A DNA stretch of 64,000 bases from NCBI GenBank assembly GCA_035998995.1, contig DASYHC010000112.1, forward strand, positions 18,209 to 82,208. Reading direction: 5' to 3'. This DNA is from Bosea sp. (in: a-proteobacteria). Lineage in GTDB: Bacteria; Pseudomonadota; Alphaproteobacteria; Rhizobiales; Beijerinckiaceae. Shown here piece after piece: positions 40,082-53,236 of the stretch. The notes under the pieces are model-generated. The model was not told the DNA's origin. It ran no database searches and saw only the letters and a list, made by a program, of their open reading frames with translations. Numbering within the stretch: the first letter of the stretch is position 1; each line of letters opens with the position of its first letter. Both the position numbers and the translations under genes were made by a program.

Positions 40082-41331
40082 GCACGCTGGCGCAGCGGCA
40101 GGGTGATGCGCCCCGGCGCAGGGGGCTGACGATCTCCCATGCCGCGATCAAGCGCGGCACGCTGTGGCTCTTGCTGGCGGTGAGCTTCGTCGCGCTGGTC
40201 GAGCCCTCGCCTTACGAATTCGTCTTCCCGATCACGCTGCTGGTTTTTGCGATCACCGGCATCCGCTTCTCGCAGAAACTGCTGCCGATGGCGGTGCTTC
40301 TGCTCGTCTATAATATCGGCGGCGTGATCGCGCTGATCCCCTGGATGGACGAGGCGCCCTCGGTGCGCTTCACCGCCGTCTCGGTCTATCTGATGATCAC
40401 GGCGATCTTCTTCGCGGCGATCATGGCGGAGGACCCGCTCGGCCGGCTTGAGACGCTGCGCAAGGGCTATCTCTTCGCCGCCTGGTGCGCCGGCCTTGCC
40501 GCCGTGCTCGGCTATTTCGATGTCGGCGGTCTCTCAGGCGTCTTCACCTACGCCTCGCGGGCCTCGGGCACGTTCAAGGACCCGAACGTGCTCGGCCCCT
40601 TCCTGGTGCTGCCGCTGATCTACTTGCTGCATGCCGTGATCGTCGGCCGGATCGGGCTGGTGAAGGGCTTTCTGCTGCTGAGCATCCCGCTGCTGGCGCT
40701 GTTCCTGTCGTTCTCCCGCGGCGCCTGGGTCAATCTTGCGGTGTCGGCGCTGCTGATGACGGGGCTGACCTTCCTGACCTCGAGCAGCACGGCGCAGCGT
40801 GCCCGCATCGTCTTCCTGACGCTGGTGATGCTGGTGCTGCTGGTCGTGGCGCTCCTGATCGCGCTCTCCTTCGAGAACATCCGCGCCATCTTCGAGCTGC
40901 GCGCCAATCTCGACCAGGACTACGACCAGGGCGTCACCGGCCGCTTCGGCAATCAGCTGCGCTCGCTGCCGATGCTGCTCGACCTGCCGAACGGCTTCGG
41001 GCCGCTGCGCTTCCGCTTCCATTTCCCGGAAGACCCGCACAACGTCTACATCAACGGCTTTGCTTCCTATGGCTGGCTCGGCGGCTTCGCCTATCTGGCG
41101 CTGACCGCTGCGACCTGCATCGCCGGCTGGCGCGTCGTCTTCCGGCGCACGCCCTGGCAGGGCCATGCGATCGTGCTCTGGTCGGTGCTGTTCGTCACCA
41201 TCCTGCAGGGCTTCCAGATCGACACCGACCACTGGCGGCATTTCTACCTGATGCTCGGCCTGATCTGGGGCATGGCGGCTTTGCCCTCGCCTGCGCCAGG
41301 CGCTCAGCCTGCCTCGCGGTCGAGCGCGTAG
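40078..41331 (+). CDS. O-antigen ligase/polymerase family membrane protein (Wzy_C-like)
   Basis: About 10 TM helices with loop FLSFSRGAWVN typical of Wzy_C. TTG start overlaps the upstream stop. Confidence 0.8.
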   Translation: MSTLAQRQGDAPRRRGLTISHAAIKRGTLWLLLAVSFVALVEPSPYEFVFPITLLVFAITGIRFSQKLLPMAVLLLVYNIGGVIALIPWMDEAPSVRFTAVSVYLMITAIFFAAIMAEDPLGRLETLRKGYLFAAWCAGLAAVLGYFDVGGLSGVFTYASRASGTFKDPNVLGPFLVLPLIYLLHAVIVGRIGLVKGFLLLSIPLLALFLSFSRGAWVNLAVSALLMTGLTFLTSSSTAQRARIVFLTLVMLVLLVVALLIALSFENIRAIFELRANLDQDYDQGVTGRFGNQLRSLPMLLDLPNGFGPLRFRFHFPEDPHNVYINGFASYGWLGGFAYLALTAATCIAGWRVVFRRTPWQGHAIVLWSVLFVTILQGFQIDTDHWRHFYLMLGLIWGMAALPSPAPGAQPASRSSA

Positions 41332-41535: not shown

Positions 41536-41775
41536 GCGACCGCATATCGGGAATTGGCGAAGGCGTTCGCACGTTGGCGCCGCCCGAGCCGGTTTCGTGC
41601 AAAGCCTATGGGCCAGCAACGGCGCTCATCGCGCCACGGGTCGAGATCGCCAAGCGGGGGCCGGCATCAGCCCCGCAGCGACCCTAGTCATCAGGCGTAT
41701 GGCGTTAACACCTATGTGTGGCTGACCGGAGCCCACTGGCCTGCCATTGTACTCATGCCCTTCGGGCGTTCCTCC

Positions 41776-41826
41776 CCAAAAAACTAGCCCGGCTCCGCTT
41801 CTGCGGACCGGGCTTCTTTCGTTTCA
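41776..41826 (-). terminator. bidirectional hairpin terminator, probable original terminator of the split tRNA-Pro gene
   Basis: AGCCCGGCTCCGC-ttct-GCGGACCGGGCT (12 bp, 1 bulge). T6 on the minus strand and a T-rich tract on the plus strand. Confidence 0.5.
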
Positions 41827-41952
41827 ACTGGTGGCCTTGCTTGCGCCAATCGATCTCGCGGACCGGCAGAGTCACGCTACCGTTTCGGTCCGAATCCGGA
41901 CCTGCCAGCCGGCACGGCGGCTGTTCTAATCTACTGAAAGAAGGGAATAAAA

Positions 41953-41978
41953 TGGTCGGAGCGAGAGGATTTGAACCT
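41953..41978 (-). pseudogene. 3' fragment of chromosomal tRNA-Pro(GGG): T-loop, T-stem, acceptor, CCA
   Basis: The minus strand reads AGGTTCAAATCCTCTCGCTCCGACCA. This complements the 5' fragment at 53179-53236. Confidence 0.85.
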
Positions 41979-42000
41979 TATACGCCCTGGTTGTGTTCAG
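41978..42000 (+). repeat. left terminal inverted repeat of the element
   Basis: TTATACGCcctggttGTGTTCAG compared with the reverse complement of 53155-53177, TTATACGCgatcgaaGTGTTCAG (18/23 identical). Confidence 0.7.
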
Positions 42001-42035
42001 TGTGTATGTAGATGCATGATCGCCTCGCGGCGTTC

Positions 42036-42245
42036 TCAACGCAAGGGGCCTCGCCTAATGGGCTCCTCGTCGTCGCGAGGAGGGAGCGGCACTCGGTCTT
42101 CGAACCGTGGCAACGGTGGAATGCCCTTCAGCCGGTGGAAGCGGTCGGAGATGGCCCTGACTGTCCGCCTATAGTTTTCGTGCCGCATCGGGTCGAATGT
42201 GGAGAGACCCGAAGGACTGTCACCATGGTCGCGGATGGTCGACAT
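42036..42245 (-). CDS. small hypothetical ORF (doubtful)
   Basis: 69-aa ORF overlapping the GNAT gene end. No motif and poor support. Confidence 0.2.
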   Translation of the reverse strand: MSTIRDHGDSPSGLSTFDPMRHENYRRTVRAISDRFHRLKGIPPLPRFEDRVPLPPRDDEEPIRRGPLR

Positions 42246-43032
42246 CGTGAGCCTCCTTGTAGGTGTCGAACAGATCAAACCCATGCGTGTCCCTGAAACT
42301 GAACGCACCGAGCCATCTGGTGCCTCGGTGTAGCATAATAGCCTTGCACAGGGACACAGACGTATTCGTGCCTTGTGGGCCCGGCCCGGGCACGCTTTGC
42401 GTGAAGACCAGGAGATCGCGCGCCGCCCGTCTGTCCTTCAGTGCAAGCACGGCGGCGACCGCGGCGTGCGTTTCCTCGTCGATCTCGCCTTGGGCGAGGC
42501 AGAGTGCGATCTTCTGGGTTGCCGACGGCACGATGTGGAAACGCCACGACGTCTCGTCCGGGAGGAAACCCATACTGAGCCAAGCGTAGCGCCCGATGTC
42601 CTCGGCCTCGATGTCGATGCTTTCCAGGCCGATCTTCCGACCGAGCTCGATGAGATTGATCATGAGCCCCGTCCCGATGCCCCGGCCTTGCAGATCCGGG
42701 TTGACCTGCGTCTCCCCGTCGCGAGCGATGGCTTCCGTGACCTCGAACCGCTTCGATTTCAGGAAGAGACGCGTGGTGTCGGGAGCGATGCCGCTGATCT
42801 CGATCTCGAACATCTCGGCCTCATGATCCAGGTTCGAGATCACGCCACGGATCGCGCCGGGAGCCCCGTCAGCGATCGCGTCGACGAACTGCTCCGGGAA
42901 CAGGCCGGCGGTTTCGAGGAAGCGGTCGTTCCACCACCGGGCGGCCTCGACGGACAGAGGCGGGTCGAAGCTCACGTACTGGTTGTCCGTGAAGCGGTCC
43001 GGCCATCCCTTCGGCGTTGCGTCGTCTGTCAT
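42220..43032 (-). CDS. GNAT-like acetyltransferase-fold protein (island cargo)
   Basis: LQGRGIGTGLM fits the GNAT motif A Q/R-x-x-G-x-G/A, followed by GRYAWLSMGF. The long N- and C-terminal extensions have no recognisable motifs. Confidence 0.55.
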   Translation of the reverse strand: MTDDATPKGWPDRFTDNQYVSFDPPLSVEAARWWNDRFLETAGLFPEQFVDAIADGAPGAIRGVISNLDHEAEMFEIEISGIAPDTTRLFLKSKRFEVTEAIARDGETQVNPDLQGRGIGTGLMINLIELGRKIGLESIDIEAEDIGRYAWLSMGFLPDETSWRFHIVPSATQKIALCLAQGEIDEETHAAVAAVLALKDRRAARDLLVFTQSVPGPGPQGTNTSVSLCKAIMLHRGTRWLGAFSFRDTHGFDLFDTYKEAHDVDHPRPW

Positions 43033-43252
43033 GGCCCTATGATATGGGGATGATCGAAAGCGACAATCGCGCAGATGCCGCAGAAGGCCGCTCCGGGCTC
43101 ACCAGGGATCATGGGCCCGCCTGACCCGCTGCGCCGCGCCCCGGCTCCTTCCCTTGCACCGAGGTGCTCGCCGGCAAGGGACGCTGCGCTCTTCGCCCTT
43201 GCCGGCTCCGCGCCTCGATGACCGCGGGACGCCGCGACGGCGGCTCCGGGGA

Positions 43253-45298
43253 TCAGGCTACGGCGACCTGGGATGCGGGCGGGGACATCCCTACCCAATC
43301 GAAGCCGACCCGCCGGCGGTCGGATGCCCATGGCCTCTCCAGAGCGGTCGCCAACGCCGACCGTTCCCCGACGACGACGACTTGCCTCTCGGCCCGGGTC
43401 ACTGCGGTGTAGAGCCACGATGGATCCAGCACCATCGATCGGTAGACCGGCACGATGACCCGCGCGGCCTGGCTGCCCTGGCACTTGTGGCAGGTCACCG
43501 CGTAGGCGAGGGCAAGGTCGATGAGCGCCCCCATTTCCGCAGGCGGGCGCCGTTCGAGGTCGCCGGACAGGAATCGGAATGTCCTCCCGTCGATCTCGGC
43601 GACGACCACGCGCTCAACCTCGTCGACCTCGACGACCTTTCCCATCGACCCGTTGAACAGGCCCAGCTTGTAGTCGTTCCGGAGATGGATGCAGGGGTCG
43701 CCCGGGCTGAACCACTCGCCGAGATGGCCCTTGATGACCGGGAGCCGCCGGGCCTGCTGCCGCGATCGCTGGAACATCCTGTTGAGGGGCCCGACGCCGG
43801 CGGGGCCGTCGTTGGTCGCGGTCACGACGACGAGCTCGCCGGCGTCGAAGCCGCCCAGATCGGCGGCCACCTTCGCAACGACGTCCGGGATGCCGTCCAA
43901 CGGGGATTCGACGAAGGAGACGCCGTCGACGGCACCGGCGTATTCCGGCAAGGGCGGCCACCTGCGATCGCGGACGGCCGCCGCCACCGCCGGGATGCCC
44001 GAGGCCTCGGTCTGACGGTGCACGACGCGCAGCCTCGCCGCGATGGCGTCGTCCATGACGAGCCGGTGATAGACAAGGCCGAACGAGATCGGAGGCAGCT
44101 GGGCCGGGTCGCCGACAAACAGGATGCGGGCACGATCGGGCACGTGACGCAGGAGGCGGTAGAGCGTGGAGAGATCCACCATCGACGCCTCGTCGATCAC
44201 GATCAGGGTGCGGTCGTCGATGCTGGCCAGGGCCGCGAGCTTCGTCCGGATGCGCCCGGCCCGCTCGGGCTCGGCGTCCTGGAGCTCATCTTCCAGCCGC
44301 CGCGTCTCGTCGAGCTCCCCGAGCAATCGGGCGAGCGTCCGCGCGAGGCGTCCGGACGCCCGCGAGAGCCGCAACGCGGCCTTGCCGGACAGCGCCGCGA
44401 GCAGCGTCGAGCCGCCCGTCGCCTCCCACGCCCGACAGACCGCACGGGTCGTGTGGGTCTTGCCTACGCCCGCGCCGCCGAGAAGGCAGGACACCGGGTT
44501 GGCGAGAACCTTGAACACCGCCGCGGCCTGCTCCGGATGAAGCCCCGCGAAATCGATGAGGGAGCCCTTCTGGAGGTCCTTAAGGACGCTTCGCGGCAGG
44601 GGCTCGGCCAAGCGCTGGATGACGGCCAGCTTGGCGACGACGTCCTCTTCCATCGTCGCGCAGCCCGGGAACCGGAGGGTGCCGTCCGCATCGACGAGCG
44701 CGCCGTTGCGCAATCCCGCGGCGATGGCCTCGCCGACGATCGCATCGGCCTCGCGCGCCCCGAGGAGGCGGGCGACCTCGCCCGGCAGGTCGGACAGGGA
44801 AATGGCGGTGTCGCCCCGCGAGATACCGGCCTTCGCGACCGCGTCGATCGAGCCGACCAGCCGCCGGAGATCCCTGCGCGGGTCCGGGACGCCTTCCTCA
44901 CGCAGGACGGCAAGCCCCAGCCGGTCGACCTTGGACCAGGGGAGGAGCGGCACGAGACAGTAGGGGTTTGCCGAAAGCCGCGTCGCCGCGTCGTCGCCCA
45001 GGATGCGGCAGAGCCGGCGCGCGAAGGCCAGGCCGTCCACGCCCCGCTCGGACAGCCACGAGATCGTCGCGGCCTCCCCGGCGGCCTCCTTCCAGGCCGA
45101 GACGGCCATGGCGGCGAGGCGGAGGGCCAGCAGGGGCCGATCGCGATCGAGCGCGGCGGCGATGGCGGGCACCTTCGATTCGTCGGAGAGGACGGATGGA
45201 AGGCTATCGCCGAAGGCCTCGCCCAGGCGCCGCGCACGCTCGGGCCCGATGCCCTGCACCCGTGAGGCGACGTAGTCCCGGACAAGCGTCCCCGGCAT
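43253..45298 (-). CDS. RecD-like SF1 DNA helicase
   Basis: N-terminal HhH-like VQGIGPERARRLGEAFG. Walker A LLGGAGVGKTHT, Walker B LIVIDEASMVD, FVGDPAQLPPI, and C-terminal AYAVTCHKCQGSQA...LYTAVTRA. The ATG overlaps the upstream stop (ATGA). Confidence 0.85.
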   Translation of the reverse strand: MPGTLVRDYVASRVQGIGPERARRLGEAFGDSLPSVLSDESKVPAIAAALDRDRPLLALRLAAMAVSAWKEAAGEAATISWLSERGVDGLAFARRLCRILGDDAATRLSANPYCLVPLLPWSKVDRLGLAVLREEGVPDPRRDLRRLVGSIDAVAKAGISRGDTAISLSDLPGEVARLLGAREADAIVGEAIAAGLRNGALVDADGTLRFPGCATMEEDVVAKLAVIQRLAEPLPRSVLKDLQKGSLIDFAGLHPEQAAAVFKVLANPVSCLLGGAGVGKTHTTRAVCRAWEATGGSTLLAALSGKAALRLSRASGRLARTLARLLGELDETRRLEDELQDAEPERAGRIRTKLAALASIDDRTLIVIDEASMVDLSTLYRLLRHVPDRARILFVGDPAQLPPISFGLVYHRLVMDDAIAARLRVVHRQTEASGIPAVAAAVRDRRWPPLPEYAGAVDGVSFVESPLDGIPDVVAKVAADLGGFDAGELVVVTATNDGPAGVGPLNRMFQRSRQQARRLPVIKGHLGEWFSPGDPCIHLRNDYKLGLFNGSMGKVVEVDEVERVVVAEIDGRTFRFLSGDLERRPPAEMGALIDLALAYAVTCHKCQGSQAARVIVPVYRSMVLDPSWLYTAVTRAERQVVVVGERSALATALERPWASDRRRVGFDWVGMSPPASQVAVA

Positions 45299-45762
45299 CA
45301 GGCGAGGTCGCCGGTGCGGAGGACCATGCCCGTCTCGCCGAGGAGCCGGATCTGCTCCGTCAGCGAGGCGATCGTCCGCCGCTGACGCTCGATCAGGGCC
45401 TCCCGTTCGGCCAACGCCCGGGCCAGGTCGTCCCTGTCGGACTGGGCCCGGCCCAGGCGATCCTTGGCGGCCTTGTCGATGACGTCGGTCAACGCACGTG
45501 CCCCGATCGGCTTGACGCCTTGCCGGACGGCGACCGAGTTCACCAGCGCGGCGAGCTCGGGCTTCTTGTAGAAGTGCTGCTCCTGGGCCTGTGTGAGCCC
45601 GCAGACCTCGACGGCGAAGGCGCGGACGTTGACCTTGCCGTCGTCGGTCATCGGCAGCGTCGGTCGCCGTCCCTCCTCGGGCTGCGCCTCCCACGCCGCG
45701 TCGAGCGCCTCCAGCCGCTCGCCGACGAGAGGGACGAGGGTTTCGAGGATCGAGCGCGGCAT
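45298..45762 (-). CDS. small HTH-like/coiled-coil protein (second ginD-like gene)
   Basis: 154 aa. VNVRAFAVEVCGLTQAQEQHFYKKPELAALV, then heptad-rich LARALAEREALIERQRRTIASLTEQIRLL. Start shares 1 nt with the upstream stop (TGATG). Confidence 0.6.
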   Translation of the reverse strand: MPRSILETLVPLVGERLEALDAAWEAQPEEGRRPTLPMTDDGKVNVRAFAVEVCGLTQAQEQHFYKKPELAALVNSVAVRQGVKPIGARALTDVIDKAAKDRLGRAQSDRDDLARALAEREALIERQRRTIASLTEQIRLLGETGMVLRTGDLA

Positions 45763-46271
45763 CAGCCGTCCTCTCTCAACTGGACGACCGGTGCGGAAGG
45801 AGCCAGGCCGACGACATGGTCGGGGCGACCATTCCGGGCGTTCCGACCGGCACGGCGAGCCATGCTCTTGGCGTGCTGGATCTGCTTGTGTGCCACGTTG
45901 ACCGCGTCCTGGAGACGAGTGGCCAGGATCGCCTTTTCCTGCCGGAGCAGCGCGTTTTCCTGTCGGAGCGCGGCGATGGTGCTCTGGGCGTCGAGCTTCG
46001 GCGTGGGCGCCCGTGGTGCGGCGACCTGAGCCTCCATGCAGGCGAGCACTTCCCGCCGGACATCGGGGTAGGCGCAGCCCTCGATGCCGATCAGCGTCCG
46101 GCTGCGGTTGGCTTCCTTGGCGACGGAGGCGACGCTGATCCGAAGCCTGCCTTCGCGCTTTGCCTTGACGTTGTCCGGATGGAGCGGCTGCCCGCGCCGC
46201 AGACGACCCAGCGCCGCGCGCAGGTCGGCTCCGGCGTCGGGACCGGTTTGGATGTTCGTCTCACGCGGCAT
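45762..46271 (-). CDS. small HTH-like/coiled-coil protein (ginD-like position)
   Basis: GGGAGG RBS precedes the ATG at 46271 (GTG at 46277 also possible). ISVASVAKEANRSRTLIG, then the zipper IAALRQENALLRQEKAILATRL. Overlaps the recombinase C stop. Confidence 0.6.
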   Translation of the reverse strand: MPRETNIQTGPDAGADLRAALGRLRRGQPLHPDNVKAKREGRLRISVASVAKEANRSRTLIGIEGCAYPDVRREVLACMEAQVAAPRAPTPKLDAQSTIAALRQENALLRQEKAILATRLQDAVNVAHKQIQHAKSMARRAGRNARNGRPDHVVGLAPSAPVVQLREDG

Positions 46272-48288
46272 CGGCACCTCCCATCACGACATTCATCTTG
46301 CGAAGGATCGCCTCCGCGGTCGCCACGCGCTCGGCGGCCACCGCGGCGATGGCGTGCTCGCCGGCGGCGCGGCCCTCGTCCCGAAGCCGGAGGTTCGTCG
46401 CGAGCCGCTCCTTCCAGAAGGGTTCGTGGGTCTCGGCGACGAGCAGGTTTGAGCAGGAGCAGCAGACGCCCGGCTGCCGGTGCGAATAGCGCGGCCGTCG
46501 CGCGGCGAGGTCGAAGGCGCCGACGGCCTGATGGTGGCAACGGGCGGTCTCCGGCCGGAACAGGCAGGCGCCCCATGCCGCCCCCCAGACGCGCACGTCG
46601 TCCTCCGCCACCGCGGAGGTGAGCCGGGCGAGGCGGTCGGCATCGGTGCCTTCGGTTCCCATCAGCGCCTCGATCGATCCGGCGTTCTCCCGGATCGTGT
46701 CGGCCATCTTGCCGGCGACGCGACCGGTCCCGTTGACGGCGTCGAACAGGAGGCGGGCGGCCTCGCGAGTCGCGACGTCGTCGAGCAGGCCTAGGAGCTC
46801 GGGGTCCGATCCGAGGTATCCCTGCTCAGTCATGGCCAGGGACATGTGCTTGAAGTGGTCGGACAAGGCGGGCAGCAACCTCTCGTCCGAGCGGACGACG
46901 TATTGCGCGAAGGACTTGCGCCATTGGTGTGTGCTCAAACGCCAATCCCGGAAGCCGTCCGGCAAGTCCACGAAGTCTCGCATGAACCGGACCTGGCCTT
47001 CGCGTAGGTCGTCGCTCAATACGCCGGCGGGCCGGGACTCGGCCGCCGGGTCGTGCCAGAAGGCTCTGGACGACAGGATGAGGTCCGACAGGCTCCGCGC
47101 TTCGCGCCAACGCCGGAAAAGGCGCTCCAGCACCAGGATCGCCTCGACGGGCGGCGGGATCACCGCCGTGCCGACCGGGCGGGAGCCCGCCACCCACTCG
47201 ACCTCCTGCCATTGGTGCCGTCCCTTGAAGACGCGACCGCGGACGTAGAAGATCTCGTTGAGGCCGCTCGCCGAGGGCCTGACCTCTACGCAGGCCGGCC
47301 AGCCCGTTTCCGGATCGACCGGCTCGGCCTTCAGGCCGGCGACCTCGCTGATGCGCATCCCGAGCATGGACTGGAGCACGATGGTGCACGCCGAGCGCAG
47401 GTCGTGGATGAGCCGGCGCATGCGCCGGATCTCGCTTAGTTCCAGCTCCTCGCCCGACTTAGTCCATCCAAGCAACGGATCGATCGCGGGGTTGCGGTCC
47501 TCGCTCCACATCCGGTTGAGGTCGCGATTGAGGCGGTAGCTGTAGGAATTGGACATGCGGGAGGTCTCGCCGTTCTTGGCGTGATAGGCCCGCGCCCACT
47601 CCACGATCAGGTCCGCGCGCTTCCCGAGCCAGCACAGGGCCTCGGGGACGACGGCGAGGAAGACGGGGTCCGGCACGGGCGGGATCGCCCCGGCGACCCG
47701 GGAGCCCAGCGTCCTCGCGACGGCGTAGGCGGCCTCGCCGCCAAAAGGATGCTCGGGCATGACCGCGCCGTCCGTGCCCGACAGCGCGGCGCGCTGTTCA
47801 TGGATGCGGACCAAGACGTCGAGATGGACGGCGAGCTTGATGGCCGTGACGTCTTCCTCCGAGCCGTTCGCCTTGTCGGCGACGAGATGCGCGACGAAGT
47901 CCCGCGCTAGATCGGCGTCGAGCTCCGCGAAGCTCGACACGCCCGCCGTCGCCATCCAGCGGACCAGGTAGCGAAGGCCGAACCCGATATCGGCGATCGT
48001 GGCGTCCTTGAGCTGCGCCCCGCGGTTGTTGGCCGATCTCAAGGACCAGACGAAGCGTCGGCACATTTCGAGCAGCCGGGACCACTTCGGATCGGTGAAG
48101 ACCGACCCGTCGGGCATGTCGAAGTCCCAGAGCACGACGGGCTCGCGCTTTCCCGCCGTTGTGGACGGAAATCGCCAAGAAGGATCTCCCCAGAGGCTCT
48201 TCGCGGAGACCTGGATGATACTGATCGGCATCCTCGCGATGCGCACGGGAGCCTGTTGGCGGTCGAGCGTGACGAGCCTGTTTACCAT
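46261..48288 (-). CDS. tyrosine recombinase C (large, 675 aa)
   Basis: SMLGMRISEVAGL (Arg I), STHQWRKSFAQY (H-x-x-R), DHFKHMSLAMTEQGYLG (His/Tyr). Cys-rich C-terminal tail (C..C-H-H...CCSC). Confidence 0.85.
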   Translation of the reverse strand: MVNRLVTLDRQQAPVRIARMPISIIQVSAKSLWGDPSWRFPSTTAGKREPVVLWDFDMPDGSVFTDPKWSRLLEMCRRFVWSLRSANNRGAQLKDATIADIGFGLRYLVRWMATAGVSSFAELDADLARDFVAHLVADKANGSEEDVTAIKLAVHLDVLVRIHEQRAALSGTDGAVMPEHPFGGEAAYAVARTLGSRVAGAIPPVPDPVFLAVVPEALCWLGKRADLIVEWARAYHAKNGETSRMSNSYSYRLNRDLNRMWSEDRNPAIDPLLGWTKSGEELELSEIRRMRRLIHDLRSACTIVLQSMLGMRISEVAGLKAEPVDPETGWPACVEVRPSASGLNEIFYVRGRVFKGRHQWQEVEWVAGSRPVGTAVIPPPVEAILVLERLFRRWREARSLSDLILSSRAFWHDPAAESRPAGVLSDDLREGQVRFMRDFVDLPDGFRDWRLSTHQWRKSFAQYVVRSDERLLPALSDHFKHMSLAMTEQGYLGSDPELLGLLDDVATREAARLLFDAVNGTGRVAGKMADTIRENAGSIEALMGTEGTDADRLARLTSAVAEDDVRVWGAAWGACLFRPETARCHHQAVGAFDLAARRPRYSHRQPGVCCSCSNLLVAETHEPFWKERLATNLRLRDEGRAAGEHAIAAVAAERVATAEAILRKMNVVMGGADAA

Positions 48289-48292
48289 CGTC

Positions 48293-50152
48293 TCACTCCA
48301 GATCCGGCAGCGGCGGCAAAGTCACCGACGAAGCCTTGTGCACCGTCGCGGCGGGGAACCGCGGCAGCCAAACCGACCGCAGGGCCTCGGCCTGGGGCAG
48401 CCAGACATCCATCCACCGGACGGGATGCACGCGCGACCGGGCGACTTCCATCTGCGCCGCAAGCTGGGACAGGCGCAGGAAAACCTTGGGATCGCCGACG
48501 TCGACGCAGGCGAGCGGACACGCCGGGCATTGCCCGTAGGCGGTGCAAGCCTGCCCATCGCGCTGACCGGGCAACGGCGAGAACAGCGGCTCGAAACAGG
48601 AGAAGCCCGGCGTCGCTGCGCTGCCCCGGCCAGCGTCGAGGAAGCCGTTTCGCGTGTCGGCACGACCGCCGGTGGCGACGAAGCGCTCCCGCCACGCCAT
48701 GGCGGTGGCGAGCGCCTCACGGCCACGCTCCCTCATGGTGGACGTCTCGTAGGAGCGGTGTGTCGTCGACACCGTAGCATGGCCCAGCAAGACCTGGTTC
48801 GCCTTGATGTCGCCTCCGCTCGCGATATCGACCAGATCGGATGCCGTCTTGCGCATCATCGACATCGTGAAGGCCGGCAGCCCATAGTCCGCGATGAAGG
48901 TGGCGAGGCCGCGATGCCAGAAACCGTCGCCGGCGGCGCCTTCCCCCGCGTCGAAGCCGCCATATGTCTCGGCGCGCGGGGTCCAGAAGACGAACACCCG
49001 GTCCCGGTGGCGCTCGTCCACGTGCCGGCGCGTGAAGCGGGTGAGCCGTTCCAGGGTCCGAAGCAAGTTGACCGGCGCCTCGGGGGCCGAGAGCCCTGCC
49101 GCAAATGAGCGGTAGTGCTTCCGCTTGGCTCGCGCCTTCCGCGCGCCGACCCGCCATCTCGCTTCGCCGAAAAGCGGATGGCTCCGTTCGACGTCATGCC
49201 ATTCCAAGGTCAACAGGCCTTCGGGGTTGAAGGCCCCGTCTATGGCCAGGAGCAATGCGAAGGGCACGATCGCGCGCGGCGAGAGATGCAGCGCGGACGC
49301 GACCTCCGCGTAGGAGCCGTAAGGGGACACCATCGAACGGGCGAGGCCGTAATCGCTCGCGGCGAGCAGGTCGCGCGCGGGGATGCGCGAGTCGTAGCGC
49401 TGGACGAGCGCGGCGAGCCGCACGACGGGGTCGCGATAGGGCGTTACGGAGCGGGCGCCGGGAGATGGCAACCTATCCGGAGACATCAGTTCGGCCCTGT
49501 CCGCGATCTCCATCCGCGCGACCGTCTCCGCGATATCGTCGATGCATGCCCTCCTGATCAGGGACAGGTCGAGATGGGAAACGGCCTCGCGCGGCCGGAC
49601 CTGACGGTGGTTCAGAGGCCAGGGATTGCGCCTGAAGCCGAAGTCCCGATCGCGGATGGGTGCGCCTCGCGCCGATGACCGCAGATGGTCGAACAGGTCC
49701 GCGACCGCACGGTAGCGCTGCGTCTTGGTCAGCCCCGACCAAGGTGTCCCATCCGACTCGCCGGTGTTCAGCCACGCCTCGAAGCGTGCGATCGCGTCCG
49801 CGTCGATGTCAGCCAACGTTTCGACGGACGAGCCTTCGAGCAGGAAGGCAAGAAAGGGGTTCAGGATCTTCGCGATGCCCTGCCGGGTCGACCGGGCGAG
49901 AAGCCCCTTGGTCGACAAGTACTCAGCGACGGCGAGACCGATGTCGCGCCTGATCAGCCAGTTCGATAGGTCGATCTCCTGCACGCCTCCGGCGCAGGTC
50001 GCGTCGCGGAAGCGCACCAACAGCCGATCCGGCTGCTCCACGACGCCGAAGATGACCGGCAGCCTCGCGGGAACCGCTTCCTTCGCCTTCGGCAGCAGAT
50101 GGGCGGGAACGGCGCGCCCGGCGCGTCGCCTGAGCGGTTCAGGCGAGCGCAT
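48293..50152 (-). CDS. tyrosine recombinase-family protein B (619 aa, atypical active site)
   Basis: MSMMRKTASDL and LLGHATVSTTHRSYE give a recombinase box II. Box I reads DGAFNPEGLL with no Arg. Cys-rich tail C..C..C..C. Confidence 0.75.
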   Translation of the reverse strand: MRSPEPLRRRAGRAVPAHLLPKAKEAVPARLPVIFGVVEQPDRLLVRFRDATCAGGVQEIDLSNWLIRRDIGLAVAEYLSTKGLLARSTRQGIAKILNPFLAFLLEGSSVETLADIDADAIARFEAWLNTGESDGTPWSGLTKTQRYRAVADLFDHLRSSARGAPIRDRDFGFRRNPWPLNHRQVRPREAVSHLDLSLIRRACIDDIAETVARMEIADRAELMSPDRLPSPGARSVTPYRDPVVRLAALVQRYDSRIPARDLLAASDYGLARSMVSPYGSYAEVASALHLSPRAIVPFALLLAIDGAFNPEGLLTLEWHDVERSHPLFGEARWRVGARKARAKRKHYRSFAAGLSAPEAPVNLLRTLERLTRFTRRHVDERHRDRVFVFWTPRAETYGGFDAGEGAAGDGFWHRGLATFIADYGLPAFTMSMMRKTASDLVDIASGGDIKANQVLLGHATVSTTHRSYETSTMRERGREALATAMAWRERFVATGGRADTRNGFLDAGRGSAATPGFSCFEPLFSPLPGQRDGQACTAYGQCPACPLACVDVGDPKVFLRLSQLAAQMEVARSRVHPVRWMDVWLPQAEALRSVWLPRFPAATVHKASSVTLPPLPDLE

Positions 50153-51614
50153 CGAGTCGCTCCTTCAAGAGGCGCGCGAAGGTGTCGGAGATCTCCGGCT
50201 CCCGGGTCTCGACGTGGCGCAGGTAGATGTCCTGGGTCGTGCTCAGGCGCTTGTGGCCCAGCCGCGCCTGGAGCTTCTTCCAGGGGGCGGGGTTGCCGGC
50301 CTGGATTTCGGCCCAATAGAATTGGCAGGCGAAGGTGTGCCGCAGGTCGTGAAAGCTGTGCTTCGCGACGTCGCGCGCTTCGAGGATCTCCTCGCCGTGT
50401 TCGTCGATGGCCGGCGACCCCGTCGAAGGATCGATCCGATAGGTGGTCTCCGTCCGCGTCAGCCCGGATGCGAGCACGGAGGCATGGAAGGCGCGCATCG
50501 CCGTCGCCGGCGACGTCTTGCCTCCGACGTCCCGGCTTGTGGATCGAATTCCGTTCAGGAAGAGCGCATTGGAGGCGTTGCGGCCACGCTGCTTCGCCGA
50601 CCTGACGACCGACGCGCGCTCGCCATCGATGTAGGCTAGCAGAGCCTTCACAAGGAAAGCTGGGATCACGACCGTGCGGGGAACCCCGCCCTTGGCGACG
50701 GTGATCCGCAAGGGCAAGGGCCGCCAGCGATCGGACAGGTCCTCGCCCCGTGCGACGTCGAGGATCTGGTAGATCGTCAGGCCGACGACTTCCTCAACGC
50801 GCATGCCGGTGTAGAGCGATGTCTCGGCGATCAGCCGGTCACGGGTCGCGCGAGCGTCGTTGTCGTCGATGTCGTATGGGGAGGCCCCTAAACCGTCGAG
50901 GATGGCCGTGAGGTCTCCCATCGCGATCGGGTTCACGTGCTCGTCCACCGCCGCCGGTCGTGGACGGAGAGGGCTCGCCGCGGCGACGCGGATGCCGCCG
51001 GTATGAGGCAGGAACGCCCTGTCGATGTCCACTAGGCGCTTGGTCCCCGCTTCCACGACAGGGCATTCCTCGACAAGGCCGTGCCGGTGCGACCAGCGAT
51101 ACAGCGCCTCGACCGTGCCGATCCGGCGCGAGATCGTCGCGGACGAAAAACGGCGGCCACGGGTGGATACCCCCTCGACCAAGGCTTGCGCATAGGCGCG
51201 CAGGTCATCCGCCCCTACCGCGTCCCATCCCAGGCCGTGCAAGCGCAGATACGTCCACCAATGGACGAGATCGTCGGCATAGGCGGTCTGGGTCTTCTGC
51301 CACCGTCCGCGGCGGGCGGGGACGTGGCAGTGGTCCAGCAGAAACAAGTTGGCCGGCTCGATAGGATTGAGATCGTCGTCGAAGAGCATGACGAACCCCG
51401 CCGGCGTGCGGAGTCCCCGCATGGTAGCGCCGTCGAAATCGCCGGCCTCGTCGACGGAGTAGTCGACGGCCCTGATGCGATGGATCGTCGCCATGGCGAA
51501 GTTCTGATTGTCGTTGTCGCCGTCCACGCCCCGCACCGCGCATTGCTTCCCGAGGCGAGAGACGTCGACGACGCTCGCGTTCCGTTCGGGTTCGATCCTC
51601 GCTCGGGCGACCAT
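50139..51614 (-). CDS. tyrosine recombinase A (491 aa)
   Basis: SLYTGMRVEEVVGL (Arg I), HSFHDLRHTFA (H-x-x-R), ARLGHKRLSTTQDIYL (His, Tyr). 14-nt overlap with the recombinase B start. Confidence 0.85.
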   Translation of the reverse strand: MVARARIEPERNASVVDVSRLGKQCAVRGVDGDNDNQNFAMATIHRIRAVDYSVDEAGDFDGATMRGLRTPAGFVMLFDDDLNPIEPANLFLLDHCHVPARRGRWQKTQTAYADDLVHWWTYLRLHGLGWDAVGADDLRAYAQALVEGVSTRGRRFSSATISRRIGTVEALYRWSHRHGLVEECPVVEAGTKRLVDIDRAFLPHTGGIRVAAASPLRPRPAAVDEHVNPIAMGDLTAILDGLGASPYDIDDNDARATRDRLIAETSLYTGMRVEEVVGLTIYQILDVARGEDLSDRWRPLPLRITVAKGGVPRTVVIPAFLVKALLAYIDGERASVVRSAKQRGRNASNALFLNGIRSTSRDVGGKTSPATAMRAFHASVLASGLTRTETTYRIDPSTGSPAIDEHGEEILEARDVAKHSFHDLRHTFACQFYWAEIQAGNPAPWKKLQARLGHKRLSTTQDIYLRHVETREPEISDTFARLLKERLDALA

Positions 51615-51637
51615 GACTCGCGCAGCTCCAGAAACCG

Positions 51638-52600
51638 TTACGATCGAGCCCGGCCCAAGGGCCGAATTCGGTCATGGTTATCGAAATCGAGGCCCGCGAG
51701 CGTCGTCGCAGGGGCGAGCGCCGTCGATCGCTCGATCAGTCTCGCCAACTCGACGGCCACCAAGGCGGCGTCGCGTGCGTGCTCGCTGCCGAGCGACACG
51801 GCCTGCGCCGACTTCAGCACGGCATGGGCTGTCGGATCGAGCGTCGCGACCGGCGCCGCCAGCCCGTCCCGTCCGACGACGAAGCCAGCGCGCGGCGCTC
51901 CTTCGAGCGCCGAGGAGACGGCCCGGATCGCGTCGAGCTCGGGGAGCGTGGCGATGAAGGCTTCCAGCACTTCCGAGGCGTCGTGGACGTGGATGCGGAG
52001 GCCGCTGGATCCGACGATGGCGGTGCCATCGGCGTGCCAGGCTTCGTCGGGCCGGGCCGCCCGAAGGGCTCCGCCAATCGAAGGCAGGACGTCCGACACC
52101 AACCCGTCCGGTACGAGAAGGTCGATGTCGGCCAGCTCTGCCTCGACCCGAACGCGGGCCTCGACGGCATGGGCGTGGGTGGCGCAGCCTCCTAGGAGCA
52201 TGCATGCCTGCCAGAGGCCCGCGCGGTCGAAGGCGCGAAAGACGTCGGCGACCGGTTGGGGCACCAGCGCGAGGCGGAACGCACGCGCGGCGCGCGACAC
52301 ATCGGCCATGCGGGGGCCGAGGCTGCGACGCTCGGCTGCGACGCTCTCGCGAGCGGCATAGAAATCGCCATACTCGGCCTCCGTCGCCGGCGAACGACGA
52401 CCGCGAGACCGCGCCTGCTTCTTCTTGGTGGTCGGATCGGTCCAGAAGCGGGTCAGGTAGTCCTGCCCGGCGACGTTCTTCCACTGAAAGCCGCCGCCCA
52501 ACCCTTCCTCGCGCTGAAGGAGGGATCGATGCAGGCGATCGACCGTCATCACGTCGTCGAGAACGCGAGACTGCTCGGCAGAGAAGGGAATGAAATGCAT
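51638..52600 (-). CDS. nucleotidyltransferase-fold protein (GSU2403-family-like, from memory)
   Basis: GGGFQWKNVAGQDYLTRFW...SRGRRSPATE...LLGGCATHAHAVE...ADIDLLV resembles that family as I recall it. ATG at 52600 or 52612. First gene of the recombinase operon. Confidence 0.5.
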   Translation of the reverse strand: MHFIPFSAEQSRVLDDVMTVDRLHRSLLQREEGLGGGFQWKNVAGQDYLTRFWTDPTTKKKQARSRGRRSPATEAEYGDFYAARESVAAERRSLGPRMADVSRAARAFRLALVPQPVADVFRAFDRAGLWQACMLLGGCATHAHAVEARVRVEAELADIDLLVPDGLVSDVLPSIGGALRAARPDEAWHADGTAIVGSSGLRIHVHDASEVLEAFIATLPELDAIRAVSSALEGAPRAGFVVGRDGLAAPVATLDPTAHAVLKSAQAVSLGSEHARDAALVAVELARLIERSTALAPATTLAGLDFDNHDRIRPLGRARS

Positions 52601-52641
52601 TTTGATACCCATAATGGATCGAACCAATATTGGGTATCAAA
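52601..52641. promoter_or_regulatory. perfect 11-bp inverted repeat flanking a T-loop-like core
   Basis: TTTGATACCCA-taatGGATCGAACCaatat-TGGGTATCAAA, directly at the 5' end of the recombinase operon. Confidence 0.6.
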
Positions 52642-52692
52642 TCGCTCCAGACAATGCGCGTCGCGGTTGTTCGTTAACGGGTGGTGAAGAAG

Positions 52693-52767
52693 TGGTCTGG
52701 GATCTCGGGATCGAACCGAGGGCCTGCACGCCCCAAACGCGCCGCTCTACCGCTGAGCTAATCCCAG
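52693..52767 (-). tRNA. tRNA-Pro (anticodon UGG), island-borne
   Basis: The minus strand folds as CTGGGAT TA GCTC AGCGGTA GAGC G GCGCG TTTGGGG CGTGC AGGCC CTCGG TTCGATC CCGAG ATCCCAG A CCA. C1-G72 and A73 are Pro identity elements. Confidence 0.9.
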
Positions 52768-52964
52768 GAAAGGGATCGCCGAAACGGAATTAGGAGTGTT
52801 CAGTCAAGGCGAGAGAAGGCGGGCGTCTGAGCACCTGCAATCTCGAAAAAGCCGTTCAGGATGAATGGAGTAGCGCCGATTGAACATGTGCAGAGCATGT
52901 TCAATAATTGCAGATCGCTGTGCGAACTGGGCGGCAAATTCAGGCCAGTGGTGGTGGAGGGGGA

Positions 52965-53006
52965 GATGATGGGCTGGACCCACATAAAGCAGTCCAGCCC
53001 ATCATC
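52965..53006. other. 15-bp perfect stem hairpin between the two island tRNAs
   Basis: GATGATGGGCTGGAC-N12-GTCCAGCCCATCATC. No U-tract, so function is unknown. Confidence 0.5.
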
Positions 53007-53052
53007 AGCAGAGCGGCGATTTCCAGCCAAGTGCTTGAAATCATTGACTTTT

Positions 53053-53130
53053 TGGTCGGAGTAGCAGGATTTGAACCTGCGACCCCATGTCCCCCAGACA
53101 TGTGCGCTAACCGGGCTGCGCTATACTCCG
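53053..53130 (-). tRNA. tRNA-Pro (anticodon GGG), island-borne replacement copy
   Basis: CGGAGTA TA GCGC AGCCCGGTTA GCGC A CATGT CTGGGGG ACATG GGGTC GCAGG TTCAAAT CCTGC TACTCCG A CCA. It differs from the split host copy only by compensated stem changes. Confidence 0.9.
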
Positions 53131-53154
53131 TCAAGGAAACCGCTCTGAAAACTC

Positions 53155-53177
53155 CTGAACACTTCGATCGCGTATAA
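53155..53177 (-). repeat. right terminal inverted repeat of the element
   Basis: Plus strand is ctgaacacttcgatcgcgtataa. See the left repeat at 41978-42000. Confidence 0.7.
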
Positions 53178-53178
53178 C

Positions 53179-53236
53179 GAACCTCCGACCCCTTGTCCCC
53201 CAGACAAGTGCGCTAACCGGGCTGCGCTACGCTCCG
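53179..53236 (-). pseudogene. 5' fragment (nt 1-58) of chromosomal tRNA-Pro(GGG)
   Basis: The minus strand reads CGGAGCG TA GCGC AGCCCGGTTA GCGC A CTTGT CTGGGGG ACAAG GGGTC GGAGG TTC and then breaks. Confidence 0.85.

Follow-up and report, generated by a model that had tools for sequence, protein, structure and literature searches.

Our analysis of the window (the whole 64,000-nt stretch of Bosea sp. DNA) identifies, on sequence grounds, its array of seven minus-strand genes as the backbone of a site-specific integrative element of the GInt kind, 11.2 kb long and inserted at a tRNA-Pro(GGG) gene. We judge it rather probable that this GInt-type element carries a module, made up of a small protein (E), a RecD2-like helicase and a hairpin, that processes the element's own DNA in replicative excision or transfer. 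The ginABCD-like recombination module within the array is known already; what appears to be new is the tie of a helicase, its small partner E and a hairpin to such arrays, of which we found no mention in the literature searched. The element is bounded and spans 11,200 bp (window 41978..53177), with the gene array as its core. Its features and the adjoining host pieces are as follows:

41953..41977, minus strand: 3′ end of the host tRNA-Pro(GGG) gene with the right core (repeat D9; ...AAATCCTCTCGCTCCGACCA)
41972..41977, minus strand: crossover core, right copy, GGTTCA
41978..42000, plus strand: right terminal inverted repeat, TTATACG-N8-GTGTTCAG
42220..43032, minus strand: variable cargo gene (270-aa product, weakly matching GNAT)
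43122..43252, minus strand: conserved long imperfect hairpin of ~133 nt (covariance model)
43253..45301, minus strand: SF1B RecD2-like helicase, 682 aa (AAA_30, SH3_13, UvrD_C_2)
45298..45762, minus strand: protein E, 154 aa, a small family always immediately upstream of the helicase
45762..46277 (or start 46271), minus strand: protein D, GinD-like, small, with a C-terminal coiled coil
46261..48288, minus strand: recombinase C, GinC-like, 675 aa, Cys-rich C-terminus
48293..50152, minus strand: recombinase B, GinB-like, 619 aa, Cys-rich C-terminus
50139..51614, minus strand: recombinase A, GinA-like tyrosine recombinase, 491 aa (Pfam Phage_integrase, SAM_1)
51638..52612, minus strand: NTase-fold-like protein (PF12281 marginal; likelier start 52600)
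52602..52640, minus strand: operator-like inverted repeat TTGATACCCA-N19-TGGGTATCAA, overlapping a promoter-like site upstream of the NTase start
52693..52767, minus strand: second element tRNA, tRNA-Pro(TGG)
53053..53130, minus strand: complete replacement tRNA-Pro(GGG) (ARAGORN; Rfam tRNA, 63.7 bits)
53155..53177, minus strand: left terminal inverted repeat, TTATACG-N8-GTGTTCAG
53178..53183, minus strand: crossover core, left copy, 6 bp, GGTTCG (junction sequences)
53179..53236, minus strand: 5′ piece of the host tRNA-Pro(GGG) gene, 58 nt (repeat D1; T-loop end ...GGAGGTTC)

An earlier, sequence-only reading of this DNA had noted neither where the element ends nor the interrupted host tRNA-Pro(GGG), the two tRNA genes carried by the element, the terminal repeats or the hairpin.

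The insertion point is the T-loop of the host tRNA-Pro(GGG) gene, which now lies in two pieces whose acceptor-arm strands pair (CGGAGCG in the 53179..53236 piece with CGCTCCG in the 41953..41977 piece). Joining the pieces in silico gives a canonical tRNA-Pro(GGG), and in silico removal of the element regains a canonical tRNA at three loci. The core common to both ends is the 6-bp GGTTCR, which adjoins inverted repeats of the form TTATAYG-N8-GTGTTCAG; this terminal-repeat pattern has exactly two matches in the window, inverted and one at each end, with 0.02 expected by chance. The terminal repeats are also kept in the related elements L001, L002 and L006, and the position of the core is identical across all five related elements. 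Split tRNA, common core and inverted repeats occur together both in the Bosea element and in four diverged ones from differing genomic contexts, and the nucleotide hit within tRNA-Pro(GGG) is the same in every one of them. Once joined, the element ends would form a palindromic attP-like site, GCGTATAA-GGTTCR-TTATACGC, and the target T-arm is an inverted repeat with a spacer. An empty target site was looked for in a related strain and not found, and a search of the window with the terminal-repeat pattern returned no second copy of the element; some GInts leave no empty site (PMC5385486).

The seven minus-strand ORFs are all intact, and the coordinates and junctions given for them in the sequence-only reading were reproduced throughout: a 23-nt gap between the NTase-like gene and recombinase A, a 14-nt overlap between A and B, a 4-nt gap between B and C, overlaps of 11-17 nt between C and D and of 1 nt between D and E, and an ATGA overlap between E and the helicase. 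The same order with near-identical junctions is found in L001 (Microvirga), L002-5 and L006-8, and as this arrangement recurs among proteins of only 33-85% identity, chance can be rejected as its origin. Consistent tight coupling is, however, limited to the six genes from recombinase A through the helicase, so the claim of seven coupled genes stands for these six in relatives and applies only loosely to the NTase-like gene, whose gap to A widens to 36 nt in L006 and reaches ~220 nt in both L001 and L002.

The recombinase trio and protein D had been likened to a known four-gene module, correctly so, as each of A, B, C and D has its homologue (blastp) in the four-gene array of a Pseudomonas aeruginosa plasmid and in a bare Methylomonas element. 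Pfam clearly identifies recombinase A as a tyrosine recombinase (2.8e-13), and its blastp matches are 6e-16 to the Pseudomonas A and 8e-70 to the Methylomonas A, while protein D matches its Methylomonas counterpart at 4e-21 and the Pseudomonas D at only 0.22. Recombinases B and C are divergent (PHROG integrase matches of 5e-4 and 4e-8, respectively), and their best PDB matches, though weak, are Xer-type throughout. In B the first catalytic Arg is missing and R434/H458/Y468 are retained; R312, H454-x-x-R457, H478/H481 and Y491 are present in C. By homology and analogy, A, B, C and D would be the equivalents of ginABCD in recombination, and all four gin products are needed for GInt excision and integration (PMC5385486). 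As in the GInts of that paper, the module is co-directional and overlapping, with three tyrosine-recombinase-like proteins of rising size and a small coiled-coil protein (~170 aa) as the fourth product; insertion is site-specific, the crossover spanning 6 bp and the repeats being short and imperfect, and variable cargo follows the core genes towards a short, relatively AT-rich far end. Unlike in GInts, the left end is not delimited by gin-like genes, two tRNA genes and the NTase-like gene coming first; the terminal inverted repeats are clear; the degenerate subunit is B (in GInt it is C); the target is a tRNA T-loop, the gene being destroyed and a whole element-borne tRNA replacing it; and E, the RecD2-like helicase and the hairpin follow the ginD-like gene as conserved backbone. 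The word tRNA does not occur in the GInt paper (PMC5385486), and neither this paper nor that on SE elements (PMC10214605) mentions a helicase. That the four-gene module is embedded in a longer unit, as had been proposed, is borne out by conservation of the longer unit among relatives; distant arrays consisting of A-B-C-D alone exist as well.

Protein E has no Pfam match, and its AF2 model (pLDDT 83) consists of helices with a 54-residue C-terminal helix. A search of PDB folds with this model returned no match and no recognisable DNA-binding fold, and its earlier assignment as an HTH protein is not demonstrable. The helicase has intact Walker A and B motifs and matches TIGR01448 over nearly the full model length (3.6e-82), its score of 276.6 lying below the RecD2 equivalog cut-off of 500. 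It shares the SF1B motor and the AAA_30-SH3_13-UvrD_C_2 order with RecD2 and the helicase domains of TraA/TraI-type relaxases, but has no relaxase domain, and the small protein E, which is specific to the family, invariably accompanies it. In the neighbourhoods of helicase and E homologues, E directly precedes the helicase in 69/69 informative metagenome loci, a multi-recombinase array adjoins the pair in every locus with enough upstream DNA, and the pair stands apart from a recombinase array in none of 80 loci, which is the co-occurrence that the sequence-only reading had proposed to look for; recombinase arrays without the pair also exist. The arrays are of three types: GInt-like (A-B-C-D-E-Hel), GMT-like (YR-GmtZ-like-E-Hel, with GmtX next in an Acidiphilium plasmid) and int1-int2-E-Hel-C-D, with the pair embedded in the recombinase operon. 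L009 has E and the helicase inverted together as a single unit, and viral contigs yielded no relatives. No other proteins of the element are as well conserved as E and the helicase (66-85% and 61-82% identity across L006, L002 and L001, compared with 48-78% for the recombinases). The suggestion that the helicase is not random cargo thus gains support from a pair that is kept throughout the clade, including the cargo-free L006, and the comparative sequence evidence places both E and the helicase in the element backbone.

The hairpin adjoins the end of the helicase gene, accompanies E and the helicase in 12 elements (covariance model 52-140 bits) and was seen only together with them. Compensatory change is found at 14 of its 47 pairs, and 89.9% of cells are paired as against 33-42% with the partners slid, in an alignment that was fitted to the model and is biased toward structure. 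Rfam holds no match to it, and the covariance model search did not detect it in low-GC elements, more distant elements or L009. Alternatively, the hairpin could function in the RNA, for instance by stabilising a transcript.

GMT islands (GmtY, GmtZ, GmtX), which move by copy-and-paste transfer, are likewise a multi-protein tyrosine-recombinase system, and the traits shared with the element as we envisage it are spacer-containing inverted-repeat insertion sites, a circular intermediate and replicative transfer (bioRxiv 10.1101/2023.03.28.534373). Relatives of E (up to 59% identity) and the helicase are located between a GmtZ-like PF13009 protein and GmtX on the Acidiphilium plasmid, and also beside GmtZ-like PF13009 proteins in metagenome loci. 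In contrast to GMT, recombinases B and C have neither a PF13009 match nor significant profile similarity to GmtZ-like proteins, and protein D is not recognised as GmtX; no helicase is described in the GMT paper (bioRxiv 10.1101/2023.03.28.534373). Strand-biased circularizing integrative elements (SE; IntA, Tfp, IntB, Srap), which take a copy-out-like route, and Tn554 (TnpA, TnpB, TnpC) also combine several recombinase-fold proteins with a small coiled-coil auxiliary, a 6-bp footprint and target specificity (PMC10214605). Compared by description, they differ from the element in gene order and number, and their description includes neither a helicase nor tRNA features (PMC10214605). If such a copy-out-like route is taken, unwinding and replication would be needed.

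The likeliest function of the pair and the hairpin, we infer, is processing of the element's own DNA in replicative excision or transfer. E, the RecD2-like helicase and the hairpin would then be a portable three-part module for element DNA processing, in which E may act as an adaptor, with either the hairpin or the recombination complex as its possible target, and unwinding of DNA by the helicase, at strand exchange or later, would allow a circular copy to be released or replicated. This proposal fits the replicative or 'copy-out' behaviour reported for GMT and SE and suspected for GInts. Many GInt-like, GMT and SE elements are mobile without a helicase of their own, which makes the module dispensable for the basic reaction.

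A different role for the same three parts, which we consider unlikely, would be mobilisation by conjugative transfer and not excision or replication. The hairpin would be an oriT-like site, E an accessory protein and one tyrosine recombinase the nicking enzyme, as with MpsA of SGI1, reportedly a recombinase-like relaxase; the helicase would act as does the helicase domain of TraI/TraA relaxases, and a helper type IV secretion system would export the strand. Such a model draws on matches of the helicase to the helicase part of Ti-type TraA (5.6e-37) and Dtr (2.6e-26) relaxase models, but these are confined to the generic SF1B helicase core, and a relaxase domain, a coupling protein and other transfer genes are absent from the element. 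It would also account for the cis-acting hairpin beside the genes and for a route of transfer, none being known for GInt and SE elements, and GInt-like four-gene elements and one E-helicase array were found on plasmids with mating-pair genes. However, the architecture with the pair between recombinase genes, within a recombination operon, points to the recombination reaction itself.

If instead the pair, alone or together with the NTase, were a defence, exclusion or anti-defence system, E and the helicase would be conserved cargo with no role in mobility, benefiting the host or shielding the element from phages or competing elements. Defence systems beside the core genes are known from GInt and GMT islands, and as cargo there typically begins directly behind the final core gene and includes many defence genes, conserved linkage alone is insufficient to argue against this reading. 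Many toxin-antitoxin and defence systems include NTase-fold proteins, which also speaks for it, and PADLOC models of RecD-like components (type IV-D RecD, PDC-S68, PDC-M16A) match the helicase; these matches cover only generic helicase domains, however, and E and the NTase match nothing. We nevertheless hold a defence role to be quite improbable, as the pair is never away from a recombinase array in the 80 loci, lies inside the recombinase operon in two architectures and is present in the minimal L006, and as a strand-specific conserved hairpin is easier to reconcile with a cis-acting site than with a pair of defence genes. The joint NTase/helicase accessory system raised by the sequence-only reading is weakened by the independent occurrence of the NTase and the pair, and by an NTase that is the least conserved element protein (33-65% identity to relatives) and loosely coupled there. 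Finally, an immobile, domesticated or decaying remnant with ancestral spacing and a helicase now serving host DNA repair would agree with the failure to find an empty site or second copy and with the arginine missing from B, but is very improbable given seven intact ORFs, the preservation of both ends and both core copies, the same element type at the same tRNA position between unrelated flanks and with different cargo each time, which requires repeated or recent site-specific insertion, and the normality of a degenerate subunit here, GinC (PMC5385486) and Tfp (PMC10214605) being described as without catalytic residues.

The NTase-like gene is restricted to some lineages, and most E-helicase loci are without it. 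Its PF12281 match scores 28.4 bits against a cut-off of 26.3, the motif GG...DxD...D is conserved, and the start at 52600 is likelier than that at 52612 because the first ATG is missing in L006. L006 and L002 keep the operator-like arms TGATACC/GGTATCA, and L001 has them with one mismatch. We regard the gene as a putative lineage-specific leader, probably controlled by the operator-like palindrome at the operon promoter.

The replacement tRNA-Pro(GGG) starts 47 bp inside the left end, is found at the same place in every related element and differs in its stems from the split host gene. It compensates for the broken host gene and may be read from the host tRNA promoter. Since it retains the GGTTCRAAT core, any protection against self-insertion must rest on flanking bases. 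At the position of the second tRNA, the 74%-identity relative L006 has a CGG anticodon instead of TGG. L006 is also a minimal element of 10,192 bp, in which the helicase is followed only by the hairpin and the right end; the GNAT-like cargo gene is absent from it, and the other relatives have different cargo there. Temperate phages such as the vTRX32-1-like Rhizobium phages (PMC8631192) also break a chromosomal tRNA and supply a full copy, not only the 3′ end; they do so with a single integrase, whereas the Bosea element has multiple recombinases and no phage genes.

The element occupies 41978..53177 (11,200 bp) and lies between two parts of a host tRNA-Pro(GGG) gene, with complete tRNA genes of its own inside. 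The tRNA features, in window positions, are:

53179..53236, minus strand: 5′ part of the host tRNA-Pro(GGG), 58 nt, a repeat copy
53053..53130, minus strand: replacement tRNA-Pro(GGG), just upstream of the NTase-like gene
52693..52767, minus strand: tRNA-Pro(TGG), the second element-borne tRNA, also upstream of the NTase-like gene
41953..41977, minus strand: 3′ end of the tRNA, 25 nt, 11.2 kb from the 5′ part

The acceptor and T-stem halves of the 5′ and 3′ fragments pair with each other and not with the intact gene between them, and joining the fragments in silico yields a canonical tRNA-Pro(GGG). The left junction runs ...GGAGGTTCG/TTATACGCGATCGAAGTGTTCAG... and the right junction ...CTGAACACAACCAGGGCGTATAA/GGTTCAAATCC... 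(slash, point of joining), with a common 6-bp core, GGTTCR, that reads GGTTCG at one and GGTTCA at the other; in the Microvirga relative (L001) the right copy is AGTTCA, as expected for hybrid sites. On the element side the core is flanked by inverted repeats of the form TTATACG-N8-GTGTTCAG, which has exactly two matches in the 64-kb window (0.02 expected), inverted and at both ends. Site-specific insertion with short imperfect direct repeats, as in GInts (islands defined by the genes ginABCD), is consistent with a 6–7 nt staggered exchange, and the same tRNA nucleotide position is used by five elements. As read from the DNA, this is a site-specific integrative element that entered the T-loop of a tRNA-Pro(GGG) gene, with GGTTCR as the site of exchange, and that carries a replacement tRNA for the host gene that it breaks. 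Some temperate phages are known to replace a whole tRNA (PMC8631192), and in the literature searched we found no description of a GInt-like element that splits and replaces a tRNA gene. The search by the exact flanking sugar-transferase protein for an empty site in a close strain returned occupied sites only, and no near-identical DNA was found in plasmids.

The replacement tRNA-Pro(GGG) at 53053..53130 contains the same AGGTTCAAAT core as the host target, so any protection against self-insertion must rest on its differing T-stem and acceptor bases. The anticodon of the second tRNA-Pro is TGG in the window (52693..52767) and CGG in a metagenome relative (L006, 7386..7460), with two further substitutions, and this tRNA is missing from the more distant elements L001 and L002.

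Relatives of protein B form only nine clusters at 90% identity among 5.8 billion proteins, and a sequence identical to it is recorded from Bosea thiooxidans. The seven-gene order is the same in Microvirga arvi BT689 (L001 and L010, B 47% identical) and in two metagenome lineages (L002–5, B 53%; L006–8, B 74%). In each, an intact tRNA-Pro(GGG) closely precedes the array and is itself preceded by a shortened copy of the tRNA 5′ part, whose 3′ counterpart lies at the far end. Core and end repeats are the same in kind (signature TTATAYG-N8-GTGTTCAG), and the host flanking DNA is different for each element. Their sizes (L006, 10,192 bp; L002, 11,153 bp; the window, 11,200 bp; L001, 14,185 bp) differ by the cargo past the helicase. 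L006 has none; the window has a GNAT-like gene, L002 encodes a 165-aa protein there, and L001 carries a KAP NTPase with small genes. Having no cargo, L006 defines the backbone: the ends, the tRNA genes, the seven genes and a non-coding hairpin. Among L006, L002 and L001 the identity to the window is 66–85% for E, 61–82% for the helicase, 48–78% for the recombinases and D, and 33–65% for the NTase-like protein.

A sequence-only reading of the window (about 67% GC) had proposed seven tightly coupled minus-strand genes, and an ORF check found all of them at exactly those coordinates:

51638..52612, minus strand: NTase-like gene
50139..51614, minus strand: recombinase A
48293..50152, minus strand: recombinase B
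46261..48288, minus strand: recombinase C
45762..46277, minus strand: small protein D
45298..45762, minus strand: small protein E
43253..45301, minus strand: helicase

The junctions described in that reading (in order, a 23-nt gap, a 14-nt overlap, a 4-nt gap, an 11–17-nt overlap, a 1-nt overlap and an ATGA overlap) were likewise confirmed. Recombinase A (491 aa) has the Pfam domains Phage_integrase (2.8e-13) and SAM-like (2.6e-8). Recombinases B (619 aa) and C (675 aa) have no match in Pfam; they match PHROG integrase families (5e-4 and 4e-8, respectively), and their profiles give weak top matches among PDB sequences that are all Xer-type recombinases, so that both appear weakly but consistently recombinase-like. 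Recombinase C keeps the full R..HxxR..H..Y set (R312, H454-x-x-R457, H478/H481, Y491). B keeps R434, H458 and Y468, with F308/N309 in place of the first catalytic Arg that a Pseudomonas GinB-like protein retains, a loss common to the tRNA-Pro clade and Methylomonas. Published work on GInts and on SEs (strand-biased circularizing integrative elements) calls GinC the degenerate member, whereas here it is B that has lost the first Arg and C that is complete. The C-termini of both B and C hold conserved Cys clusters, CxnCx5CxxC, and protein D (171 aa) ends in a heptad-like segment. NCBIfam gave no match for the NTase-like protein, B, C, D or E. Kinship of D and E as paralogues is unproven, the profile comparison being not significant (E = 0.1).

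The recombinases and D can be placed among known systems. [quoted passage not shown] The window has this ginABCD arrangement, three recombinase-like genes followed by D, in agreement with the four-gene module named by the sequence-only reading. Homology to GInts has been judged by E < 1e-5 to at least one GInt integrase plus the same organisation (PMC10121019). Against the array of the P. aeruginosa plasmid pNDTH9845 (376/563/637/171 aa) blastp gave 6e-16 for A, 3e-8 for B, 5e-28 for C and 0.22 for D, and against the Methylomonas pUP202 element 8e-70, 2e-66, 5e-127 and 4e-21, respectively. The pNDTH9845 D protein, WP_009681707.1, is the cited similarity reference for proteins in the supplementary-table portion of the SE/GInt survey, and it is via this array that the window would be tied, indirectly, to named GInts. 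By homology, the core A-B-C-D is probably a GInt module, GInts being the closest known system, and recombination would be carried out by these four proteins. Sphingobium, Azospirillum, Aurantiacibacter and an alphaproteobacterial MAG hold more distant A-B-C-D arrays (B 29–32% identical), none of which has an E, a helicase, an NTase or a tRNA within 10 kb.

On plasmid pUP202 of Methylomonas sp. UP202 (L017, 5773..11515), a bare A-B-C-D element lacking cargo has its place inside an F-type transfer operon, with traU and traN as its neighbours. Among plasmid-borne arrays it is the one closest to the window's recombinases (C 37% identical).

The element departs from the GInt definition in its tRNA T-loop target, its whole tRNA genes and its clear terminal inverted repeats; neither the GInt paper (PMC5385486) nor the SE papers mention tRNA or a helicase. 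The 5′ end is also differently built: in GInts it is delimited by the gin operon, whereas here the left end is at 53177 and A starts at 51614, with two tRNAs and the NTase-like gene between. Some other E-helicase relatives begin with A beside a host gene. RIT elements have overlapping ritA, ritB and ritC and no fourth small gene (PMC3414803), and the window is set apart from them by its conserved D; its three recombinases have 491, 619 and 675 aa. [quoted passage not shown] GMT islands, SEs and Tn554 are, by analogy, functional analogues of the element.

The place of the NTase-like gene in this operon is less constant. Its product matches PF12281 (NTP_transf_8, GSU2403-like) marginally, at 28.4 bits with a gathering cut-off of 26.3. 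Within the clade the carboxylate motif LLGG...D162-x-D164...D211 is conserved and an N-terminal segment strongly so. A structure model built with four close homologues is of low confidence (pLDDT 44), a profile search of PDB sequences gave no match, a wider protein search returned only four close relatives, and the literature on PF12281/GSU2403 held nothing relevant. The gene also leads the array at two further type I loci and at three of type II (the types are described below); most loci with E and the helicase lack it. Its gap to A is about 220 nt in L001 and L002. In the literature searched we found no description of an NTase-led operon. An operator-like inverted repeat, TTGATACCCA-N19-TGGGTATCAA (52602..52640), extends over a promoter-like site immediately ahead of the NTase start codon; the arms of the repeat, TTGATACC...GGTATCA, are conserved in L006 and L002 and, with one mismatch, in L001. 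This conservation suggests a regulated operon promoter ahead of the NTase-like gene and places the start codon probably at 52600 rather than 52612. No other minus-strand promoter-like site was found inside the seven genes, and no minus-strand terminator-like site, both weak negatives.

Protein E and the helicase behave as a pair. E has no match in Pfam, NCBIfam, PHROG or PADLOC; its structure model is confident (pLDDT 83) and finds no fold match in the PDB, leaving the helix-turn-helix label that E had earlier been given unsupported. The helicase has the domains AAA_30, AAA_19, SH3_13 and UvrD_C_2 in Pfam and scores 276.6 bits against TIGR01448 (E = 3.6e-82, model positions 75–701 of 713), which by sequence makes it a RecD2-like SF1B helicase and not a RecD2 equivalog (cut-off 500 bits). 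Relatives of E form 60 clusters at 90% identity, and a profile search returned 177 representatives among 1.84 billion proteins. Scanning metagenome contigs with the E profile gave 80 loci, which were annotated with custom profiles and clustering. The helicase directly follows E in 69 of the 69 loci that have at least 400 bp downstream (automated flagging gave 67 and missed two where, as an ORF-overlap artefact, the helicase ORF begins within the span of the E ORF), and a recombinase array is present in every E locus with enough upstream sequence.

The arrays are of three architectures:

Type I, the window type: A-B-C-(D)-E-helicase
Type II, GMT-like: a 479–549-aa tyrosine recombinase, then a 1050–1080-aa PF13009 (Integrase_2) protein, then E-helicase
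Type III, in low-GC organisms: int1-int2-E-helicase-C-like-D-like-X

Many type I arrays start directly at a host gene (truncated comM, rarA-like, IMPDH-like or thiF). ORFs of about 300 aa upstream of A in distant relatives were considered as divergent NTases and proved to be host genes (ThiF, IMPDH-like, RarA-like, truncated ComM, aminotransferase). A type II array on an Acidiphilium multivorum plasmid is annotated in RefSeq as a run of tyrosine recombinase, 'VPA1269 family protein', E-like protein, 'RecD-like helicase' and 'GmtX'. In type III the pair lies within the recombinase operon, and blast detects no similarity between those recombinases and the window's. In another locus (L009, 6745..9404) E and the helicase together, as one block, face the other way from A-B-C-D. 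Identity to the window's E is 59% for the E of one type II array and only 43% for that of some type I arrays, which suggests that the pair moves between array types. The literature searched held nothing relevant on helicase-linked GInt or GMT elements.

Several other elements with the pair adjoin tRNA genes (L037, L068, L044, L052, L070, L104): tRNA-Tyr or tRNA-Asp lies just upstream of the array, and a convergent tRNA-Glu(CTC) about 1 kb past the helicase. L105 abuts a truncated comM.

For about 190 nt past the helicase stop, DNA conservation among the window, L006 and L002 is far above that expected from the 55–65% protein identity. This region folds as one long imperfect hairpin, single-copy in the window and absent from Rfam, with compensatory changes visible among the three sequences. 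With a covariance model built on the 133-nt core, 12 elements score 52–140 bits on the gene strand and only 20–28 bits on the opposite one; they belong to types I and II, with a type III variant among them. The hairpin usually lies just past the helicase (in L001, beyond the cargo); the model has no match in arrays lacking E and the helicase and detects no copy in L009. In an alignment fitted to the model, which favours structure, 89.9% of cells pair versus 33–42% with slid partners, 14 of 47 pairs have changes on both sides, and none of 500 shuffles reaches the observed pairing values. The folding energy is unremarkable for the GC content (z = -2.0), so the case rests on conservation and covariation.

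We suggest that E, the helicase and the hairpin would form an accessory DNA-processing module that serves the element itself. An adaptor might load a 5′–3′ SF1B helicase at a cis site, and the helicase might then release or replicate a circular copy. GMT islands move by copy-and-paste via a circular form, and their targets are spaced inverted repeats (bioRxiv 10.1101/2023.03.28.534373), a kind of site of which the tRNA T-arm is an example; SEs use a copy-out-like route (PMC10214605), and some GInts leave no empty site (PMC5385486). Tentatively, and at rather less than even confidence, we extend this to a portable unwinding or replication cassette, captured repeatedly by unrelated GInt-like, GMT-like and third-type elements and driving replicative copy-out mobility, in which E would load the helicase at the hairpin or a recombination intermediate and which is here combined with a tRNA replacement that would tie host to element. 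The main rival is that E, helicase and hairpin are an oriT-like mobilisation module, as the helicase resembles the helicase domains of relaxases. Alternatively, E and the helicase could be conserved defence or exclusion cargo; PADLOC gave generic helicase-domain matches only. Least likely, the array could be a decayed remnant. The viral contigs searched contained no relative of E, which leaves a phage or satellite origin unsupported. A paper on jumbo-phage islands was set aside as a parallel, as those are single-integrase tmRNA islands.

The interest of the proposed cassette lies mainly in its strict and repeated association with three different recombinase systems, and the literature searched holds no description of an E-helicase-hairpin module linked to such arrays. 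GInts, SEs and GMT elements have lately come to be recognised as vehicles of virulence, resistance and defence genes. The questions touched are how three to four recombinase-family proteins cooperate, how new copies form while the donor is kept, and by what route such elements spread. An array-linked helicase with a dedicated partner and a cis-acting hairpin would offer a testable handle on the replicative or transfer step. Splitting a tRNA while carrying a complete spare extends a trick of some phages to an integrative element free of phage genes. Elements of this kind, now annotated as hypothetical proteins, may be found in genomes by the split tRNA-Pro, the GGTTCR core and the TTATAYG-N8-GTGTTCAG ends.

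The window's cargo (42012..43032, minus strand) is a 270-aa protein with a weak GNAT match over 33 residues only; in a sister contig (L018) a 69-aa ORF is called that abuts its 3′ end. In host DNA just beyond the right end of the element, 41750..41828 (plus strand) matches the alphaproteobacterial sRNA family mmgR/suhB (RF00519) at 36.8 bits, below the gathering score of 41. A sugar-transferase/Wzy-like gene pair lies beside the element both in the window (38540..41331) and in L006 (3123..5935). Its side of the tRNA and its relative orientation are both reversed between the two, which suggests either a local inversion or different paralogous contexts.
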